Source of the DNA: a virus
IMG/VR virus record: IMGVR_UViG_3300045988_111756
Location: 1 to 40,642 of that record
DNA: 40,642 bases
Direction: 5' to 3' (one strand)
Both the position numbers and the translations under genes were made by a program. The notes under the pieces are model-generated. The model was not told where the DNA came from. It was given only the letters and a program-made list of their open reading frames with translations, and ran no database searches. Shown piece by piece: positions 1 through 36,167 of this stretch (its first letter is position 1; the number at the start of each line of letters is the position of its first letter).

Positions 1-56
1 CTTGGTTTGCTTGATTTGCTTGATTTGCTTGGTTTGCTTGATTTGCTTGATTTGCG
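1..56. repeat. Tandem 9-bp repeat array CTTG(G/A)TTTG, 6 units. The same array, with 42 nt of identical overlap, is at the window end (40575..40642). It is in frame and encodes (ANQ)n on the minus strand
   Basis: Direct reading: units G,A,A,G,A,A at the start; G,G,A,G,A,A,G,A(partial) at the end. The last 42 nt of the window equal the first 42 nt. Confidence 0.9.
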
Positions 57-2808: not shown

Positions 2809-3849
2809 ATGAGTACGATGAACAATAACTTACCTGATTTGATCATGCGCTCCAAGCCTCAGTTCGCTCTCGCCATCGGTGGCAGCACCCCCGCCCAGAG
2901 GCAGGAGAGGGCCGAGCGCTTTACCCGCATCTGCCTCACGGCCATGAGACAGACACCCAAGCTCGCACAGTGCGAACCGGCCTCTATCCTTGGCGCCATG
3001 ATGACATGTGCTCAGCTCAATCTCGAGCCAAACACGCCGCAGGGCCTCGCCTACCTCATCCCCTACGGCAGGGAGTGTCAGTTCCAGGTAGGATATAAAG
3101 GCCTTATGCAGCTCATGTACCGGAGCGGGGCTATCGCCTCCTTCAATGCCGATGTGGTCTATCGGCAGGAGGTCGAGCAGGGCCTCTTCGAGTATGAGAG
3201 CGGGATTAGCCCCCGTATCAGCCATAAGATAGACCTGCTCAATCCCGAGGCCCGCACGGGTAAGCCCGAGGACGTCATAGCCGCATACGCCGCCGTCGTC
3301 CTCAAGACCGGTGAGCCGATTGTCCGCCTCGTCACCAAGATGGAGATTGACCAGGCACGGGCCCTCAATCGGGGCAACTCCCCCGCATGGCGTGACCATT
3401 ACGCAGCCATGGCCATCAAGACGGCCATCAAACGCCTTTCCGCATGGCTCCCGGTCACGAAGGTCGCCGATGCCTTCGCCGCGGAAGAAGCCACCGCGCC
3501 CGCTGAAGCCGTGGTCGAGCATGAGAAGCCCACTCCCGCGGCTACTGTGGACGCGATCAACGCCATGCTTGCCGGGGAAGAGAAGCCGGCCGGGAAGAAG
3601 GCCGACGAGCCCGAGAAGGAAGAGCCGGCCGCCGTCGAGCAGGCCGGAGAGAAGCCCGCGGAACAGCACGCGGAGAAGGCAGAGGAGCAGACTTCCGCCC
3701 AGAAGGCTGCAGCCGAGCCCGAGCCTCAGCCCGCCCAGGCCAAGGGCCCGGGGGAAAAAATCAAGTGCCCCGACACCGGCAAGCTCGTCGACGACGTAGC
3801 CGACTGCCCGAACTGCCCCCACCGGCAGGGATGCCCTCAGTGGGACTAG
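2809..3849 (+). CDS. recT: RecT-family single-strand annealing protein with a low-complexity acidic linker and a C-terminal CxxC...CxxC zinc ribbon
   Basis: RecT signature QCEPASILGAMMTCAQLNLEPN...GLAYLIPYG...QFQVGYKGLMQL. C-terminal KCPDTGKLVDDVADCPNCPHRQGCPQW. RBS AAGGAG before ATG 2809. Confidence 0.8.
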   Translation: MSTMNNNLPDLIMRSKPQFALAIGGSTPAQRQERAERFTRICLTAMRQTPKLAQCEPASILGAMMTCAQLNLEPNTPQGLAYLIPYGRECQFQVGYKGLMQLMYRSGAIASFNADVVYRQEVEQGLFEYESGISPRISHKIDLLNPEARTGKPEDVIAAYAAVVLKTGEPIVRLVTKMEIDQARALNRGNSPAWRDHYAAMAIKTAIKRLSAWLPVTKVADAFAAEEATAPAEAVVEHEKPTPAATVDAINAMLAGEEKPAGKKADEPEKEEPAAVEQAGEKPAEQHAEKAEEQTSAQKAAAEPEPQPAQAKGPGEKIKCPDTGKLVDDVADCPNCPHRQGCPQWD

Positions 3850-3945
3850 ATGGATGACGGAGGGGCGGTAAGCCCCTCCAAATTACCGAATGCGCCGTAA
3901 AACCCCGCCCTTCAGGGCTGGGGATATAAGGCGCGTCCGCCGAAT

Positions 3946-4305
3946 TTGCGTAAGCAATTGAAGGCGGACAATTCTCTTAAGTACCATATCGTTTTTTGCC
4001 CTAAGTATCGTCGCAAAGTACTGGTGAATGGTGTGGATGTGAGGTTAAAGGAGCTCATCAGATCCATAGCCGACGAAAACAAGTTTGAAGTCATCGAAAT
4101 GGAAATCATGCCAGACCATGTGCATCTGCTTTTGGAGGTAGACCCGCAATTCGGAATCCATAAAGCAGTAAAGACAATCAAGGGCAAGACATCGAGGATA
4201 CTTCGCCAAGAATTTCACTGGCTGACAACGAAACTGCCTACGCTTTGGACGAACTCCTATTTTTGCTCAACAGTAGGCGGCGCGCCGCTTGAAATCGTCA
4301 AGTAA
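3946..4305 (+). CDS. tnpA: IS200/IS605 Y1 (HUH) transposase TnpA
   Basis: KYHIVFCPKYRRKVL, HUH motif PDHVHLLL, catalytic Tyr in WTNSYF. TTG start (no in-frame ATG upstream). Confidence 0.85.
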   Translation: MRKQLKADNSLKYHIVFCPKYRRKVLVNGVDVRLKELIRSIADENKFEVIEMEIMPDHVHLLLEVDPQFGIHKAVKTIKGKTSRILRQEFHWLTTKLPTLWTNSYFCSTVGGAPLEIVK

Positions 4306-4337
4306 TATATCGAGAGTCAGAAAACGTCGCAAAGGAA

Positions 4338-5471
4338 GTGAAAGAAATGGAAACGTACACGCTCGGCTACAAGTTCCGCATCTATCCGAATGCGACGCAG
4401 GCGCGTCTCATCCATCGGACGCTCGGCTGTGCCCGTTTCGTGTACAACCATTTCCTCGCTGTCCGCCGCGACCAGTGGAACGCGAACCGCAAGTCCATTG
4501 GCTACACGGAATCCAGTAGATTGCTCACTGACCTCAAGAAGCGCGAGGAAACTGCGTGGCTGTCCGAAGTAGACAGCATGGCATTGCAGGAAGCCCTGCG
4601 CAACCTCGACCGTGCATTCCAGAATTTCTTCGATAAGCGGGCAAGATACCCGCGCTTCAAGTCGAAGCATAGTCATGCGCAGTCCTACCGGACACGCAAT
4701 CAGTCAAACGGTGTGCGCATCGTCGGCAAGAGAATCAAGCTGCCGAAAATCGGCCTTGTGAGAATCAAGCAGAGCCGCGAATTTTCAGGCAGGATTCTCT
4801 CCGCAACCGTGAGCCGCACAGCGTCCGGCAAATACTTCGTCTCGCTCTGCGTAGAGCAGGACAAGGCAAAGCTCTTGCGTCCGAATGCAGGCGGGCAGAT
4901 TGGCATCGATGTCGGCATCAGGGAATTCTATACGGACAGCAACGGCAATACCGTTGAGAATCCGAAGCCGTTAAAGAAGCTCCTACGGAAGCTAAAGCGC
5001 GAGCAACGCAGGCTGTCCCGCAAGCTGCCCAGGTCGCAGAACCGGGGCAAGGCGCGTGTGCGCCTCGCCCGCGTCCACGAGCGGATAGCGAATATCCGCA
5101 AAGATTTCCTGCACAAATGCACCACGCGGCTTGCCCGTGAAAACCAAACGGCAGCCGTGGAGCATTTGAATGTGAAGGGAATGCTCAAGAACCACAGGCT
5201 TGCGCAGGCAATCTCGGATGTGAGCTGGTCAGAGTTCTTCCGCCAGCTTGCATATAAGATGGAGCTGCGCGGCGGCGAGCTATTAAAGGTCGAGACCTTC
5301 TATCCGTCGAGCCAGACGTGCAGCGTCTGCGGCTATCAAAACACCGAGGTGAAGAACCTCGGCGTCCGCGAATGGACGTGCCCGCAGTGCGGAGCGCATC
5401 ACGACCGCGACCATAACGCGGCAAAGAATATCCTGCGGCGAGCCTTGGAGAACAAAGCCAAGGCAGCCTAG
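4338..5471 (+). CDS. tnpB: TnpB (OrfB) RuvC-like RNA-guided endonuclease
   Basis: RuvC-I GIDVGI. Zinc finger CSVCGYQ...CPQCG. RuvC-III DRDHNAAKNI. 377 aa, appears intact. Confidence 0.85.
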   Translation: MKEMETYTLGYKFRIYPNATQARLIHRTLGCARFVYNHFLAVRRDQWNANRKSIGYTESSRLLTDLKKREETAWLSEVDSMALQEALRNLDRAFQNFFDKRARYPRFKSKHSHAQSYRTRNQSNGVRIVGKRIKLPKIGLVRIKQSREFSGRILSATVSRTASGKYFVSLCVEQDKAKLLRPNAGGQIGIDVGIREFYTDSNGNTVENPKPLKKLLRKLKREQRRLSRKLPRSQNRGKARVRLARVHERIANIRKDFLHKCTTRLARENQTAAVEHLNVKGMLKNHRLAQAISDVSWSEFFRQLAYKMELRGGELLKVETFYPSSQTCSVCGYQNTEVKNLGVREWTCPQCGAHHDRDHNAAKNILRRALENKAKAA

Positions 5472-5597
5472 CATAGCAAAAGTACCGTGGGGCACACGGA
5501 AACTCACGCTTGGGGAGATCGTGTAAGACGCCAAGTCCTAGGATGCGGCGCAGTGGTCGTCGAACCAAGAATCCCCCGGATTTATCCGTGGGGAGTG
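5430..5597 (+). ncRNA. Putative omega-RNA (right-end element RNA) of TnpB, overlapping the tnpB 3' end and the IS right end
   Basis: Established biology of IS200/IS605 TnpB. Local hairpins at 5485-5499 and 5573-5593. Boundaries are inferred, not observed. Confidence 0.3.
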
Positions 5598-8500
5598 TCA
5601 TCTAGGGCTCACCACTGACAGCGGTGTTCCTTCGCCTTCCTGCCACTGTTCCACGCCGCGCATAACACGACGAGATACAGGGCCGACAGGAACCCTGCTT
5701 ATATAGCTTCCCAAGTCTATTGCCGACATAATCAGCTTTTCCGCGTCCACATCTTCCCCCCTTGCCGCCTTACTGCCACGGGAAAGAGCCGTGCCAATGA
5801 GCTGCATGGGAGTGTCAAACGCGGTAGAAAGTTCACCGCCTCGACCACCTGCGCCAGAGGCGGAGATAATCATATCAGAAGCAGCGTTGCCGAACACGGG
5901 AACGGCCATGGCCGCCTGTCCCATGATGGACGATATCAGGAGCTTCTTCAGCTGTTCGTCGTCTTCTTCGTCGCCACCAAAAGCGCCCTGCATAAGCCCC
6001 TTCATAACGACCATGCCGAGAGCAGGAAGTAGCATATCGTATGCTTCCATTTTGGTGAACTCGAACTTACTCACCTTGCCGCGCTTTATGCCCTGCAACG
6101 CATATCTCGACCTCTGAGCAAACTTTGTCGTTGCGCCGGAAAACATATTGAACATGCGGACAATGCCCTTATCACGGCCGAAAGCGGAGCGGGAAAGAGC
6201 GTCGTTGTCAGGGTTACTCTGAGCAATGACCTTGTCGGCATACGCCACGGCCTGCTCATGGAACTCTGAGTTCTTATCTATCGTCCAGCCTGCTTTGCCG
6301 CGCAGTTCCTTCATGCGCTTATGATACGCGCCGCTCCAAACTGCGGAAGTAATCACGAGGTCTGCAACAGCTATGGGCATCATTCCAAGATTGGCCACGT
6401 CTTCCCAGGTGTACACCTTGCCGTTTTTGATAATCGTCATCTTGCGCTCAGGATCGAACCTCATAGCCTTCCGCGCCATATCCTGATCTATGTTGCGGTA
6501 TCTGCGCTCCATGTACGGGCTTGCCGCGAATATCTCCCGAACAAGGCCAGTTCCACGCGTGGTGAGCTGAGCAACGCCACGGGCAACACTGGCAAGGCCA
6601 ATATCATGTATCGCAGGGAATACGGCCGTAAGCTGCATAAGTGCCGTGTTCAGATTCATGGACAGGGCGTAATAGACAAGGAGCTGTCTAGCCTTCTCCG
6701 CAATCTGATACAAGCCGGAGTTTGGCGTCACATCGTCAACGACAAGGGCTTTCAGGTTTGGCCTGATTCTGTCGTAATCCTGTATGCCGAATACTCTCTG
6801 ATACTCGGAAGCAAACACAGGAGAATTGATAACCTTGTCCGCGAAACGCACGTCATAGCCAAGCTCGATAAAACGAGCAGAGTCCACAAGGTGTTTCTGC
6901 AGGGCATCGACGCCGAGGCGGACAGAACGTCCGGTGTGCTTCACGCGCCCCATGGTAAAGCCTTTGCGTGCAGCAGGCACACCGAACAGCCCTTCCGATC
7001 TGTCAAGGATATCTTCCTTGCCTTCGAGAGCGCGCATCTTCACGTCAAGGCGAGAATCGTACTTGATGGGATAATAGCCGCCACGCAGTCCGATTTCTTC
7101 ACCGCCGACAGTAACGGCAAACGCGCCCGGCTCTATCCCCTTCGGAGCAAAGCCGTATATCTTCTTATGGGCCTTCTGAGTGTCTTCCCACTGGCTGCCG
7201 AGAACATCCCAAACGCCCTGTATGGCACGCCAGTCAGCAGCAGAGAGTATTCCGTCACGTTTTGCACGGCCAGACACAAGCTGTTGCGCCTCAGTGGGGT
7301 TGATATCAAAAAGCGTAACTGCCGCGTCGTCGCCAAGGAGTAAAGAGACCATATCATAAGTTAGGCCGCCTCTTCCGTCCTCATCGAAATAGCTGGACCG
7401 CAGACGTTCCCTGTTTCCGTCGTTGCCCATGTTGAGAGCCATGCCGATAACCATTTCAGCAGTCCAGCCCTTTTCCCCAGAACGTCGCATAGCTTCAGGG
7501 ATGGGCACAAGTTCCCCTTTCTCATCCCTGACGTTCAGCACACTCTTGCCGTACTTCTTTCCCCATTCTTTCATGCTGGAAAGAAGCTGCACCAAGTGAG
7601 GAGTGATAGCCTTATTCGTGCTGTTGAGTCTCGACTGGAATCTGTCAGTAGCCTCCCTGAGCGGCTCATACACCCCGCGTTCTGCGGCGCCTGCGGAGCT
7701 TCCCTTGCGGCCAGGAACATTCTGAAAACCGTCAGCTTTACGCATTTCCCATTCAAGGGAGTCTATAGAGCTAAATCCCTTGTCGAGCCTGTCGCCTACA
7801 GAGTCCCTGCGGCTTGCGTAGTACGTCGGCATAGACGACATGCTTTCCGCCGCACTGTTTGCAATGCTGTTTATTTTTGCGTTCAGGCTTTCTTTGTTTG
7901 TGGCGTTCTGTTCCCGGCCGGAGTGTCTCAGGAAGTCAACAAGATTGCCGACCTGTTCCACCTCCTCAATCTGGAGCTTGTCCCAGCGGAGAGCAATGCC
8001 GCGCTTGCGTTCGGTCTCGTCTGGGTTGGCGAGGTCGAGCAGCCAGTCAGGGAACATAGGCATAAGGTCTATGGCGGAAGTATCGCCCACACTCTTTTCC
8101 ACAAGTTCACGCAGGGAAAGTTCAGCCGAGTCAACATCCCACGCCGTAGCAGGAGCACGCACGCCAAGGCCCATAGCGAGCTTTCTGAGCGCCTCAGTTT
8201 GTGCGGCGGCATAAGTGCCGGGCTTTACCATGTTCGCGCGTCTCAGCTTGTTCTGGGCGGCTTCTATGGTCTTCTTCGCCTTGTTCACTTCCTGCAGCAT
8301 GGCGAAGGCCATACGAGCACGCTGCACGGCACGAACGGCTTCAACGTCTCTGCCACGCTTGGCAGCTTTGGAACGGTCATTCATAGCGCGGCGAAGGGCA
8401 GCAATGAACCTGGACGGCGAAAGCTGCTGCACTGTCATGCCTGCGACTTCACGCTTTGCCATGTTGCGGTAGTAGCTTTCCGGCAGGCTTTCACGTTCCA

Positions 8501-23152: not shown

Positions 23153-24652
23153 ATGTCACCTCCAGTTCGCCATTTTCATTGATCTTGTATGTGGCATCTG
23201 GGGCAGTCTGCCCCGTGTAGTTGAGGATCAAGTTCCCGCTGCCATCCACAGCAAACTGGATGAACTGAGCATCCAGCGCTGTGGTAATATCGCCGGCCTC
23301 CCCCTTCGGCCCCTGCGGGCCAGGCTCTCCTGGTTCTCCCTTTTCCCCCTTCTCACCTTGCAATCCTTGAGGCCCCTGCGGGCCGCGTGCACCAGTATCG
23401 CCAGTGTCGCCTTTCGGCCCGGTCAAGCCCTGGTCGCCCTTTTCGCCTTTTACGCCTTGAGGGCCACGCGCACCGGTATCGCCGGTGTCGCCTTTCACCC
23501 CAGCAGGGCCGGGAATGCCTTGGATACCCTGCGGGCCAGGCTCTCCTGGTTCTCCCTGGATTCCCTGCAAACCGCGTGCTCCTTCCTGCCCCTTCGGGCC
23601 TTCTGGGCCGCGTTCACCGGGGTCACCCTTGGCACCGGCAGGGCCAGTGCCGCCGGTATCACCCTTCTCGCCTTTGGCACCGGGAAGGCCGCGGGGGATG
23701 CCGAAGAAGAAGCGTAGGGCGTCGGAATCGAAACGGCACGTCGCAGCCTCGCCGGGTTCCAGCGTGCTGGCTTCGGCGGTCAGGGCGGAGATATCGAGGT
23801 AGGTATCTTCGATGCGTTTGACCAGCTCTTGGATCTTCGCAATCTGCACGTCACCTTCCGCGTCGATCTTCGCAATCTGCACGTCACCTTCCGCGTCGAT
23901 CTTCGCAATGCCCTTTTCCACCACGGCGCGGATATCAGGGTTTGCGAAGCTCAGGCTGGAGATACCCCACACCCGCAGGCCTGCGCCTGGGTTGCTGGCG
24001 AAGCGGATGCGATTCTTTCCGATGATGGTATAGGCTTTGTCAGGTTCCTGCACCACGCCGCCCAGGGAGAGAAGAAGATTGTTGGCGTCGGGATCAAGGA
24101 TAATGTCCTCGCCAACCTCGTATTCCACGACGCCAGCCTTGGTGGTAAACGGCTCGATGGTCTGGGCGAAGAGATTGGCCATGGCCTGATTCACGGCAGC
24201 GACTGCCTGCTGCATGTACTTGTAGGCGACGAGAATGTCCTCGGCCATCTGCTCCGGCGTCCTGTCATCTGTGGGCGGAACGATGACGGCGCGTTCCAGG
24301 GCCTCAAGGAGCTGCTGCCGTTCGGCACACGCCATATCAAGTGCGTCTTCGAGGACTTGAGGATCGAAGCGCGTGCCGGAAAGCAGATCAACCCCCTGCG
24401 TGAACGGCATGTCACGCAGGATGGCCAGCTTCCAGCCAGAGGGCAGCGGAGCGCCGTCTTTGCGATACGTCACCGTGCCGCCGGTATCAGTCAGCGTTGC
24501 CGTCCAACCTGTGGCCGGCAGGGATGCACCGTCCGGGCCGGTGATGGTGACGGACAGCTCCGAGGTACCCCAGACCCGGAAGTCAAAGGGGAAGTCCGTG
24601 GTGGCGCCATTGCCGTTGAATACGGCTTTGGACACCTTGCTTTGCATGGTCA
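23145..24652 (-). CDS. Tail fiber protein 1 (about 502 aa): T7 gp17-like N-terminal tail-attachment domain, coiled coil, about 50 collagen-like G-X-Y triplets, small C-terminal domain
   Basis: N-terminal [28 protein letters not shown] resembles T7 gp17 DGSNRDFNIPFEYLARKFVVVT. Long G-X-Y run 23280-23700. Confidence 0.7.
23833..23910. repeat. Perfect tandem duplication of a 33-bp unit (encodes [11 protein letters not shown] x2, plus a partial third copy) inside fiber gene 1
   Basis: gatcttcgcaatctgcacgtcaccttccgcgtc at 23833-23865 and 23866-23898. Confidence 0.8.
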
Positions 24653-34671: not shown

Positions 34672-35442
34672 TCATATCTCCTGCCCGGCATATTCCCATA
34701 GCGTCATGCCGAGCGACGTACCGGACGTGTCGGGCAGCTGCTTCAGCCAGTCCAGGGAAGGTGACTCGTCCTTCACCTGTACACCCCTGACCTGCCTGCA
34801 TCCGACAAACCGGCAGTCACGGCTTCCGCCCTGGCCGCCACCGGTGTAGTCGAGTCCTCTCTCCTGTCCGCTCACCCAGGATGACGGGGAGAAGATGTCT
34901 CTGATGCCGCCATCGTTGTAGGCTTCGCCCAGGTGATTGAGGTGATCCACGATCCAGTCTTTGCGGGAAAGACTGTGAGAACGCGAGAACACACAATTTG
35001 TGGCAGTCAGGCAGGCGCTGTGATGGGCCCATGCGCCGAAGGTGCGGACATCAAAACATCCCACGCCCCAGTCGTGCACCCAGCACTGGCTCATATCGGC
35101 GATAACGCCGTCCTGCACCTCGGGACACCTTCTCCCGCACCTGATGAAGGCGCAGTTTTTGAGAAAGAGAAGCCCTGACTTGTCTTCTGCCGGGTAGTCC
35201 CCGTTGCCCCCAAGGATGGCTTTCTTGCAGCCGATGAAGACGCAGCGGTCGATGACCACATGGGCGCCCTTGATGCAGTCGATAGCTTCATCCTGGTCAG
35301 CGAGCGGGACGGCGGAGAGGTCGAAGATGCAGTCCTGGATGAGAGTGCCGCCGTCACTTCCCCAGACCTGAATACAGTCTCCGCCAAGGTTGAACGTCGG
35401 GGCCGTATAGAGGCCTTCCCGGATTACCCTGCTGTAGCTCAT
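34672..35442 (-). CDS. Cys-rich protein with right-handed beta-helix-like repeats (256 aa)
   Basis: Recurring rungs DCIFDLS, RCVFIGC, NCAFIRCGRRC, NCVFSRS, DCRFVGC. Confidence 0.5.
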   Translation of the reverse strand: MSYSRVIREGLYTAPTFNLGGDCIQVWGSDGGTLIQDCIFDLSAVPLADQDEAIDCIKGAHVVIDRCVFIGCKKAILGGNGDYPAEDKSGLLFLKNCAFIRCGRRCPEVQDGVIADMSQCWVHDWGVGCFDVRTFGAWAHHSACLTATNCVFSRSHSLSRKDWIVDHLNHLGEAYNDGGIRDIFSPSSWVSGQERGLDYTGGGQGGSRDCRFVGCRQVRGVQVKDESPSLDWLKQLPDTSGTSLGMTLWEYAGQEI

Positions 35443-36167
35443 TGCCCCTGCCTTCCAGACTTGCCCATACCGTGCTTAACGCGATCCGCTTCTTCGGCGC
35501 GCTTCGCGTCGTTGAAACGGTCAAGGGTGCCGACAAGATACACATGTCGTGGACTGTTACTTGCCCCGTAGGGCCTCCGGCGTTCAGTCTCTGCATTCCG
35601 ATACGATACCGCCCATCCGCGGATATAAGCGCGGCGCTTTTTCAGCCTTGCCCTGTACTGCTCAGCCTTCCCCCCAAGCCGTGCCGCCAGAAGACGGGAA
35701 GCGGCGCAAAGACTGGAAGCTGACATGGTTTCTCCGTTTTTGGTGAGCGTTACGCCCACGCTGATACGGGCATTCCATGCCTGACAGTTGGCTACGCACC
35801 TGCTGATGGTCGCTGCACTCAGGGTGCGGTTCTTCATCTGCTGGGAATGGTTCACGTAGCGCAAATTGCTGTAGTGGTTGTTGTGCGAATCGCGGTCGAT
35901 GTGGTCGACTTCCATGCCTTCCGGGCACGGCCCGAGCCAGCATTCCGCGACAAGACGGTGAATCATATGCCTGCGCACTTTCCTTACCCCGTTCAACGTA
36001 CAGCTCGTCCACGCAGCGTAATAACCGGGCTGGGAATGGTGCGTGTCGAGCCTGATCGCAATCTGTTTTTTACTTTTCACATTGCGCATGATTCGCCCGT
36101 CTTCGCTGATCTCGTACAGGTACTTTAAGGATGGTATTTTCCGAAACTCAAGGTTTGATTCGTTCAT
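35439..36167 (-). CDS. HNH homing endonuclease (NUMOD4 + HNH_3)
   Basis: IPSLKYLYEISEDGRI (NUMOD4). VDHIDRDSHNNHYSNLRYVNHSQQ (HNH). Confidence 0.8.
   Translation of the reverse strand: MNESNLEFRKIPSLKYLYEISEDGRIMRNVKSKKQIAIRLDTHHSQPGYYAAWTSCTLNGVRKVRRHMIHRLVAECWLGPCPEGMEVDHIDRDSHNNHYSNLRYVNHSQQMKNRTLSAATISRCVANCQAWNARISVGVTLTKNGETMSASSLCAASRLLAARLGGKAEQYRARLKKRRAYIRGWAVSYRNAETERRRPYGASNSPRHVYLVGTLDRFNDAKRAEEADRVKHGMGKSGRQGQ

Follow-up and report, generated by a model that had tools for sequence, protein, structure and literature searches.

An IS608-Like Insertion Sequence, Probably from Gut Desulfovibrio, Most Likely Locked in Place between recT and a Virion Gene of a T7-Like Phage

Introduction

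When a transposable element is found wedged between two genes of a phage, is it a passenger still able to leave, or has it become stranded in the genome that carries it? We have addressed this question for the viral DNA recorded as IMGVR_UViG_3300045988_111756 (positions 1 to 40,642; all 40,642 nucleotides [nt] are referred to below as the window), which by its gene content, judged from profile matches, belongs to a T7-like podovirus. The list of open reading frames (ORFs) places two of them on the plus strand at the locus in question, at 3946–4305 and 4338/4347–5471, and both lie between the stop of recT (3849) and the stop (5598–5600) of a gene of 2199 amino acids (aa) on the minus strand. 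An earlier reading of the letters and their ORFs (the sequence-only reading) took the pair for a complete tnpA-tnpB insertion sequence (IS) occupying this space. We conclude, with a probability of roughly 80%, that the element is a recently acquired copy of an IS608-like IS abundant in gut Desulfovibrio, and that the copy in the phage is non-autonomous and most likely locked in place.

Results

The locus is an IS200/IS605 (IS608-like) tnpA-tnpB element, and its family is a full member of that kind; the Pfam matches of the two ORFs, to Y1_Tnp and OrfB_IS605, uphold what the sequence-only reading had proposed for the space between recT and the 2199-aa gene. Alignment with about 40 other copies sets the limits of the IS at 3887–5601 on the plus strand, since homology to these copies (L001–L007, L017–L026, L113–L128 and L131–L158; L numbers denote the sequences compared with the window) begins at 3887 and stops at 5600/5601. 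Within these limits the element measures 1715 nt and is a tnpA-defective variant, shorter by 84 bp, of a 1799-nt IS608-like element. It does not fill 3850–5597, as had been supposed: positions 3850–3886 are native phage DNA, consisting of a hairpin and the string AAATTAC, and are common to related phages. In one of them, L013, the DNA after recT reads ...GGAGGGGCTTACCGCCCCTCCAAATTAC/GGAG... (in this and the sequences below a slash marks the place of the IS boundary), a hairpin and AAATTAC being present there too. There are no terminal inverted repeats and no target-site duplication, and the flanks, ...AAATTAC and CTAGGG..., share no repeat; a scan of the IS region for direct and inverted repeats returned short matches only, of a kind often due to chance. 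The best description of the window copy is a stranded, non-autonomous copy of a true IS200/IS605 member, one that misses three features of that membership: a functional TnpA, a cognate left flank and a canonical right terminus.

The first of these features had been read as present, in the form of an intact Y1 transposase. The tnpA remnant (3946–4305, plus strand) does match Pfam Y1_Tnp (E = 2e-39, profile positions 4–115 of 121) and keeps the HUH motif (HVH, 4117–4125), and it is, to judge from alignment with sister copies, a pseudogene with two independent lesions. One is an 84-bp deletion, whose junction at 3977–3978 (plus strand) is located by alignment with the full-length copies L001, L002, L003 and L004; lost with it are the TATAAT promoter of tnpA, the ATG start and the first 15 codons, encoding MNRVYHSNHNIVYSC, and a promoter scan of the element found no sigma-70-like plus-strand promoter left anywhere within it. 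The other is a C>T change at 4303 that converts CAA to the nonsense codon TAA (4303–4305) directly 5′ of the catalytic tyrosine codon (4306–4308): sister copies read ...VKQYIESQ, the window ...VK-stop-YIESQ. The tyrosine after the new stop aligns with the catalytic Y127 of IS608 TnpA, and the intact TnpA of the sister copies is 135 aa long, with the catalytic tyrosine present.

These lesions are older than the entry of the element into the phage, because the same variant occupies chromosomal sites. In many samples a chromosomal aat gene contains the 1715-nt form, nonsense codon included, and the same form stands beside a flavodoxin gene; the phage-like contig L023 has the 84-bp deletion without the nonsense codon, and the deleted variant is present at no fewer than five sites. 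The flavodoxin site holds the full-length 1799-nt IS in L157 and the 1715-nt deleted form in L114 and L115, which come from different samples, so that the deletion variant may spread by conversion, besides transposition in trans. Taken by itself, the comparison of L157 with L114 and L115 offers two accounts of the 84-bp deletion, spread by conversion or repeated origin.

The ends retain an elaborate structure. The left end (3887–3977, plus strand, as are all the parts that follow) folds as single-stranded DNA (ssDNA) with an energy of -25.8 kcal/mol (z = -4.8) and is conserved in relatives. It contains the guide tetranucleotide AAAA (3899–3902), which is the four bases 5′ of the left hairpin, an imperfect palindrome with a bulged T (3903–3923), and a second hairpin (3935–3969), the last two taken from the ssDNA fold. 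The right end for TnpA (5569–5601), delimited by comparison with the right ends of the family, contains the guide tetranucleotide GAAT (5569–5572), again the four bases 5′ of the hairpin, an imperfect palindrome with a bulged T in the ssDNA fold (5572–5594), and the terminal cleavage motif (5598–5601), which is TCAT here and canonically, by comparison with other copies, TCAA. The subterminal hairpins at both ends show compensatory changes across relatives.

It is in the bases beside the cuts that this copy stands alone. The left-flank tetranucleotide TTAC (3883–3886, plus strand) occupies the position of the target, or transposon-adjacent motif (TAM); the sequence-only reading had pointed to this TTAC near the left end. 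The usual target of the element is TTAT, and TTAC is non-cognate for it. The left flank is TTAT in 28 of 28 metagenome contigs (24 distinct sites) and at all of the roughly 35 other independent insertion sites, and TTAC is found in the window alone. The C of TTAC is ancestral, being already present in the recT-downstream DNA of the related phages L011–L014. The right end is GTCAA in every one of 24 non-redundant family members, out to cyanobacterial elements, and in all close copies; GTCAT occurs in the window only. Guide and target covary in the family, AAAA going with TTAT and, in the relative L006, AAAG with TTAC. IS608 has AAAG with TTAC and GAAT with TCAA (PMC5934647), and it finds its cleavage sites by pairing with the guide tetranucleotides (PMC3201880, PMC5934647). 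Since the pairing rule is valid in the family, the window has a mismatch at the base beside each cut, C3886 on the left and T5601 on the right. The normal mobile insertion implied by the sequence-only reading is hard to square with a TTAC flank and a TCAT terminus that deviate exactly there.

Experiments on two related elements indicate what such changes should do. A non-cognate TAM abolished TnpA excision of ISGst2, and single-base changes in the TAM abolished cleavage by its TnpB (PMC10055086); mutating or deleting the right cleavage motif of IS608 destroyed the synaptic complex (PMC3201880). If the same holds here, the window copy should be unable either to be excised or to have its empty site cut. 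TnpA supplied in trans from chromosomal copies would cut it poorly or not at all, because TTAC mismatches the AAAA guide and TCAT replaces TCAA. The family itself is mobile, its copies in chromosomal and viral contigs having more than 35 different flanks.

The right boundary also bears on the neighbouring virion gene, and an insertion thought to be purely intergenic proves to split the last codon of that gene and to supply its stop. The minus-strand ORF (5598–12197) ends in an Arg codon, AGA (5601–5603), and a TGA stop (5598–5600); with the IS boundary at 5601, the IS contributes the whole stop codon and the third base of that Arg codon. Excising 3887–5601 in silico leaves ...AAATTAC/CTAGGG..., of which the minus strand reads ...CCT AGG TAA, that is, ...Pro-Arg-stop, and the TTA of the left-flank TTAC would then be the TAA with which the virion gene natively ended. 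The sequence before insertion is reconstructed as ...GCCCCTCCAAATTACCTAGGGCTCACC..., with the predicted junction 5′-GCCCCTCCAAATTAC/CTAGGGCTCACCACTG-3′. The nearest homologues, the closest of them 72–74% identical, also end in ...Pro-Arg-stop: L016 (...KPR-stop, CCC AGG TAG), P0001 and P0002. More distant homologues of the virion protein end in PRAN, PRSGN, PRSGK or PASD. A canonical right end, with A at 5601, gives ...Pro-Ser-stop, and the observed T gives ...Pro-Arg-stop, the conserved terminus; 5601 is the sole IS base that differs from the copies in L020, L114, L119 and L121. The A>T change fits selection restoring the Arg, or blocking excision, and we give these ideas limited weight.

Two other readings of the right end were rejected. 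If the native site were TTAC/TCTAGGG, with a right end one A short, the virion protein would gain about 46 residues running antisense through recT, and its nearest homologues end in ...Pro-Arg-stop. A role for the right end as terminator of the late operon found no support, the minus strand having 3 terminator-like matches versus 3.8 expected in shuffles.

The second gene of the element is in a different condition. tnpB (4347–5471, plus strand) encodes an intact protein of 374 aa with matches to Pfam HTH_OrfB_IS605, OrfB_IS605 and Cas12f1-like_TNB, and the claim that TnpB has complete RuvC I, II and III motifs and a zinc finger stands. Its RuvC residues D188 (4908–4910), E272 (5160–5162) and D355 (5409–5411) align with the catalytic D191, E278 and D361 of ISDra2 TnpB (8h1j/8exa; E = 2e-99, 48% identity over 358 aligned residues), and the zinc finger, CxxC...CxxC, is formed by C325, C328, C345 and C348. 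Judged by these residues, TnpB is catalytically intact. The identical protein is indexed in 3863 blocks of a metagenome collection, and relatives of it occur in ten IMG/VR viral contigs. TnpB could probably be transcribed only by read-through from recT, which is on the same strand with a hairpin lacking a U-tract in between; read-through would be needed because the native promoter has been deleted.

The stretch between tnpB and the right end had been taken for the source of a guide RNA, and a structured region of that type is indeed there. These 130 nt, from the tnpB stop to the right end, are kept at the nucleotide level even where TnpB is only about 33% identical. RNAalifold applied to 16 relatives yields a putative omega RNA scaffold core (5485–5594, plus strand) with five helices (5485–89/5495–99, 5509–13/5565–69, 5517–23/5551–58, 5529–32/5547–50 and the right-end hairpin, 5572–80/5585–94) and 30 pairs, 15 of which show compensatory changes. 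In this alignment 98.5% of cells pair, versus 37–53% in slid controls, and none of 500 shuffles reaches the observed value. Helices 1–4 lie outside the hairpin and the adjacent guide tetranucleotide used by TnpA, and because four of the five covarying helices are outside the TnpA hairpin, the assignment of the conserved structured region 3′ of tnpB as a putative guide-RNA scaffold is supported. An Rfam search of 3700–5800 (E up to 1) returned no matching family.

The guide of TnpB reportedly comes from the flank immediately after the right end, a point associated with Karvelis and Altae-Tran and the year 2021. Under the same rule as stated for TnpB and its omega RNA by Meers and colleagues (Meers 2023, PMC10055086), the putative guide of about 16 nt is 5602–5617 (plus strand), CTAGGGCTCACCACTG, antisense to the 3′ end of the virion gene. 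The RNA would thus carry a guide matching the virion gene end. The 16-mer is present once in the window, in its own flank only. In the IS-free allele, as reconstructed, the match adjoins TTAC (TTAC + CTAGGG...); the TAM of the element is TTAT, so this allele would be non-cognate. With TTAC rather than TTAT in that position, the cut-and-copy-back cycle by which such elements are retained is probably not operating here.

Where did the element come from? On its sequence, it appears to be a very abundant IS of human-gut Desulfovibrio that the phage picked up recently. It is near-identical to chromosomal copies, which therefore points to recent transfer, and the proteins neighbouring those copies bear the NCBI names of Desulfovibrio sp.; the near-identity also suggests a Desulfovibrio host for the phage. 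Recent acquisition had been proposed earlier, and it gains from the finding that the element is identical to chromosomal copies except at 5601 and that related phages lack it, both those related in the recT module (L011–L014) and those related in the virion-gene module (L016, L129 and L130). The identical insertion is present in phage contigs from ERZ28657587, ERZ1689948 and ERZ1689480, and partially in ERZ1689295; these contigs do not date the event, because they are essentially clonal (0 mismatches).

The relatives also show what surrounds the site in other genomes. Those sharing the recT module (84–89% nt identity) continue after TTAC with more plus-strand genes, among them one for a tyrosine integrase, and in those sharing the late module the big gene is followed by Bro-N genes and then by convergent early genes. 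The IS thus sits precisely where two mosaic modules meet, and the DNA that both sets of relatives have there is missing from the window. Searches for an IS-free sibling took three forms: an exact 25-mer of the right flank had 0 matches in IMG/VR; exact-protein look-ups with the big protein, RecT, the exonuclease and a 708-aa protein gave only contigs with the same insertion; and a homologue search with the C terminus of the big protein gave nothing above 73% identity. Distant blastn searches of reference phage genomes returned short or weak matches only and no close relative. Plasmids held no close copy of the element, the best full-length match being 68% identical and from Bifidobacterium, and the scan of species-representative genomes, in which the best TnpB match was 78% (a metagenome-assembled genome of Selenomonadaceae), did not identify the host.

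Several observations on other copies deserve mention. L017 and L024 share with L019 the left flank ...CATGGCTTAT, joined in different Desulfovibrio contigs to different right flanks, so that recombination between IS copies is indicated. The viral contig L003 carries the IS right end twice, the second time inverted and 3.2 kb away (5254 and 8423–8522); in L025 a second Y1 transposase gene (4551–4961), oppositely oriented, lies about 400 bp beyond the IS. Within the left end, about 45 nt (3891–3935) match Morganella phage IME1369_01 at 93% identity, and some 890 enterobacterial plasmid records match one or another short part of the IS at 95–99% identity; these short matches may represent a conserved IS200-type end or a miniature derivative.

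The composition of the element and its surroundings can be described briefly. The lower GC content that had been cited as a sign of recent arrival holds for the tnpA part (47%, clearly lower) and fails for tnpB (57%, like the flanks); overall the IS has 54.5% versus 58.3% for the window, a weak difference. Upstream are, by Pfam, a PD-(D/E)XK/DUF3799 exonuclease gene (1918–2739) and recT (2755/2809–3849), whose product has 364 or 346 aa depending on the start chosen by the gene caller. Directly 5′ of the recT ATG at 2809 stand 3.5 copies of a 12-nt tandem repeat (AGTTGTGGTATT, 2751–2792). The native hairpin 3′ of recT (3859–3880, plus strand; GGAGGGGC-GGTAA-GCCCCTCC) lies outside the IS, in the last phage DNA on the left, and folds as ssDNA with -10.3 kcal/mol (z = -4.1). 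It is kept in L011–L014 with compensatory stem changes, GGAGGGGC and GCCCCTCC versus GGCGGGG and CCCCGCC, and its loop in L013, TTACC, is the reverse complement of the GGTAA loop of the window, as if flipped.

Downstream, on the minus strand, the 2199-aa gene follows genes for the 708-aa protein (endolysin and tape-measure PHROG matches) and a T7 gp14-like protein, and the wider late module has tail, fibre, major-head, head-tail-adaptor (portal-position) and terminase genes. The label gp16-like, which would make its product a large ejection protein, is reasonable for the 2199-aa gene by position; its domain matches are weak. The protein has matches below Pfam thresholds to ART-PolyVal (ADP-ribosyltransferase of polyvalent proteins, residues 570–625) and LPD22. 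Elsewhere in the window, an HNH_3 endonuclease gene (35439–36167, minus strand) is possibly a second selfish element of this phage, and a perfect 33-nt tandem repeat (2.4 copies, 23832–23909) lies within a tail-fibre-like gene. Tandem repeats of 9 nt (CTTGATTTG / CTTGGTTTG), which also show a super-period of 27 nt, lie at both ends of the window (1–55 and 40575–40642), and the window begins and ends with the same 42 nt. The assembly is thus probably a circle that was opened within an array of about 13 repeats, possibly iterons or a regulatory array.

Discussion

How did an element that chooses TTAT come to lie after TTAC with an altered terminus? The most likely route, to which we assign about even odds, would be an off-target insertion after TTAC followed by the A>T change at 5601, and the main alternative route would be a deletion or recombination associated with the IS. 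A single event, in which cleavage shifted by one base gave TTAC and TCAT together, was rejected by reasoning, as no register reproduces both junctions.

The alternative that survives best holds that the junctions are secondary. A canonical insertion at TTAT, at the end of the virion gene or 3′ of recT, would have been followed by an IS-adjacent deletion or a recombination between copies that removed phage genes; by that event either the left end became joined to the TTAC of recT, or the right end, short of its final A, became joined to the virion gene near its terminus. We regard this as possible, at well below an even chance. TTAC is found at none of the roughly 35 other sites; homology to the recT module ends exactly at the left IS boundary, beyond which relatives carry further plus-strand genes including the tyrosine integrase; the late-module relatives have Bro-N genes after the big gene, and the window lacks the corresponding DNA on both sides of the IS. 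The case of L017 and L019, with one left flank and different right flanks, shows that this IS does rearrange, and some homologues of the big protein have 2–3 residues after ...PR. However, the closest homologues (72–74% identity) end exactly in ...Pro-Arg-stop; a deletion with single-nucleotide precision at the boundary of the left end would call for a special mechanism, for instance action of TnpA on a pseudo-target, and we found none documented; recombination of two copies alone leaves TTAC and TCAT unexplained; and the relatives are too distant to rebuild the ancestor (63–91% protein identity for recT, 51–74% for the big gene).

One can also suppose that both boundary changes were fixed by the phage, the IS being locked in, the C-terminal Arg restored, the end of the IS made part of an essential gene, and TnpB with its guide RNA kept as a nuclease; we think this unlikely. 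In a related form of the argument, the phage has co-opted TnpB and its guide RNA as a nuclease, for example against IS-free siblings, competitor phages or host DNA, and selection has locked the element. In favour of this, the dead TnpA is accompanied by an intact TnpB and scaffold, the window copy departs from the closest copies at just two bases (one in the IS, one in the flank), each next to a cleavage site, the adjoining RecT and PD-(D/E)XK recombination module could repair breaks from an IS-bearing template, and the same insertion is present in phage contigs of at least two studies. But the tnpA lesions are older than phage entry, with the variant at chromosomal sites, and tnpB has no phage-specific change and so no signal of selection. 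Within the window the guide matches its own flank only; the TAM of the IS-free allele is non-cognate, and ISGst2 cleavage was lost with single-base TAM changes (PMC10055086); and the phage contigs sampled, which show 0 mismatches, are in essence one clone. Co-option of this sort seems to us very unlikely. As for an intact and autonomous tnpA-tnpB IS merely occupying intergenic space, the strong Pfam matches of both ORFs, the HUH motif and the intact TnpB suggest it at first sight, and it can be dismissed on the sister-copy alignment, in which the TnpA ORF lacks promoter, ATG, first 15 residues and catalytic Tyr, and on the non-canonical ends, the right one of which overlaps the coding end of the virion gene.

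We are thus left with a non-autonomous Desulfovibrio IS that most likely cannot leave, and several points tell against this conclusion. The immobility of the copy is argued from experiments on IS608 and ISGst2, and ISGst2 partly tolerated mutations of the transposon-encoded motif by using alternative sites (PMC10055086). The element did reach a TTAC site, so that TTAC is not absolutely excluded, or else the junction is secondary. An IS-free sibling phage was not found in the searches described, and the pre-insertion sequence is accordingly a reconstruction. The argument that A>T restores the Arg is post hoc. Transcription of TnpB and its RNA is presumed to occur by read-through, and the intact tnpB is not readable as a mark of selection, given that the whole element is near-identical to chromosomal copies.

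As a natural dead end, which lacks a transposase, adjoins a non-cognate target motif and has a mutated right terminus, the locus could serve to test how strictly the shared TAM couples excision by TnpA to targeting by TnpB. It is also an instance of seamless insertion at a gene end, the IS lying in the last codon of a large virion gene and the protein being unchanged. The near-identical chromosomal copies tie an uncultured T7-like phage to a gut Desulfovibrio host. For annotation, tnpA is to be entered as a pseudogene, the IS as 3887–5601, and the stop of the virion gene as derived from the IS.

Insertion sequences bearing TnpB are already known in phages, and the parts of this one follow the rules of IS608, ISDra2 and ISGst2. 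To judge by the titles of the papers concerned, IS200/IS605 and TnpB genes have reportedly been found in Campylobacter, Thermus and cyanobacterial phages. The present element resembles those, as far as titles tell, in being a TnpB-bearing passenger of a tailed-phage genome and differs in that an essential-looking virion gene takes its stop codon from the end of the IS and that both boundary bases are altered.

The closest parallel in the DNA is IS608 (ISHp608) of Helicobacter pylori, which likewise has tnpA followed by tnpB on one strand and whose TnpA is 66% identical to the intact TnpA of the sister copies (E = 2e-58). The two share the layout of the left end, with its second hairpin (PMC3201880, PMC5934647), subterminal imperfect palindromes bearing a bulged T, the right guide GAAT, the canonical TCAA of the family, the pairing rule between left guide and target, and the absence of inverted repeats and target duplication. 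They differ in guide and target (AAAA and TTAT here, AAAG and TTAC in IS608), in the distance from the cut to the left hairpin (16 nt versus 19) and in that from the right hairpin to the end of the motif (8 nt versus 10); unlike IS608, the window copy has a dead tnpA and non-cognate bases at both cleavage sites.

With ISDra2, whose TnpB is known from structures (PDB 8exa, 8h1j), the element shares the RuvC Asp/Glu/Asp and the zinc finger, as well as a structured RNA-coding region running from the end of tnpB to the right end (the omega RNA, or reRNA) followed by a guide encoded in the flank. Its target motif is TTAT, that of ISDra2 TTGAT; its scaffold is without an Rfam match, and its TnpB is known here from sequence. 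ISGst2 of Geobacillus stearothermophilus (Meers et al. 2023, PMC10055086) offers the model for retention, in which TnpB cuts the donor joint, and resembles our element in having a TTTAT-type TAM that serves TnpA and TnpB alike, a right-end motif with two differences from the TAM, and non-autonomous derivatives beside autonomous copies. Unlike in ISGst2, the flank in the window is the non-cognate TTAC, so that a donor joint could neither form nor be cut and the retention cycle is probably broken.

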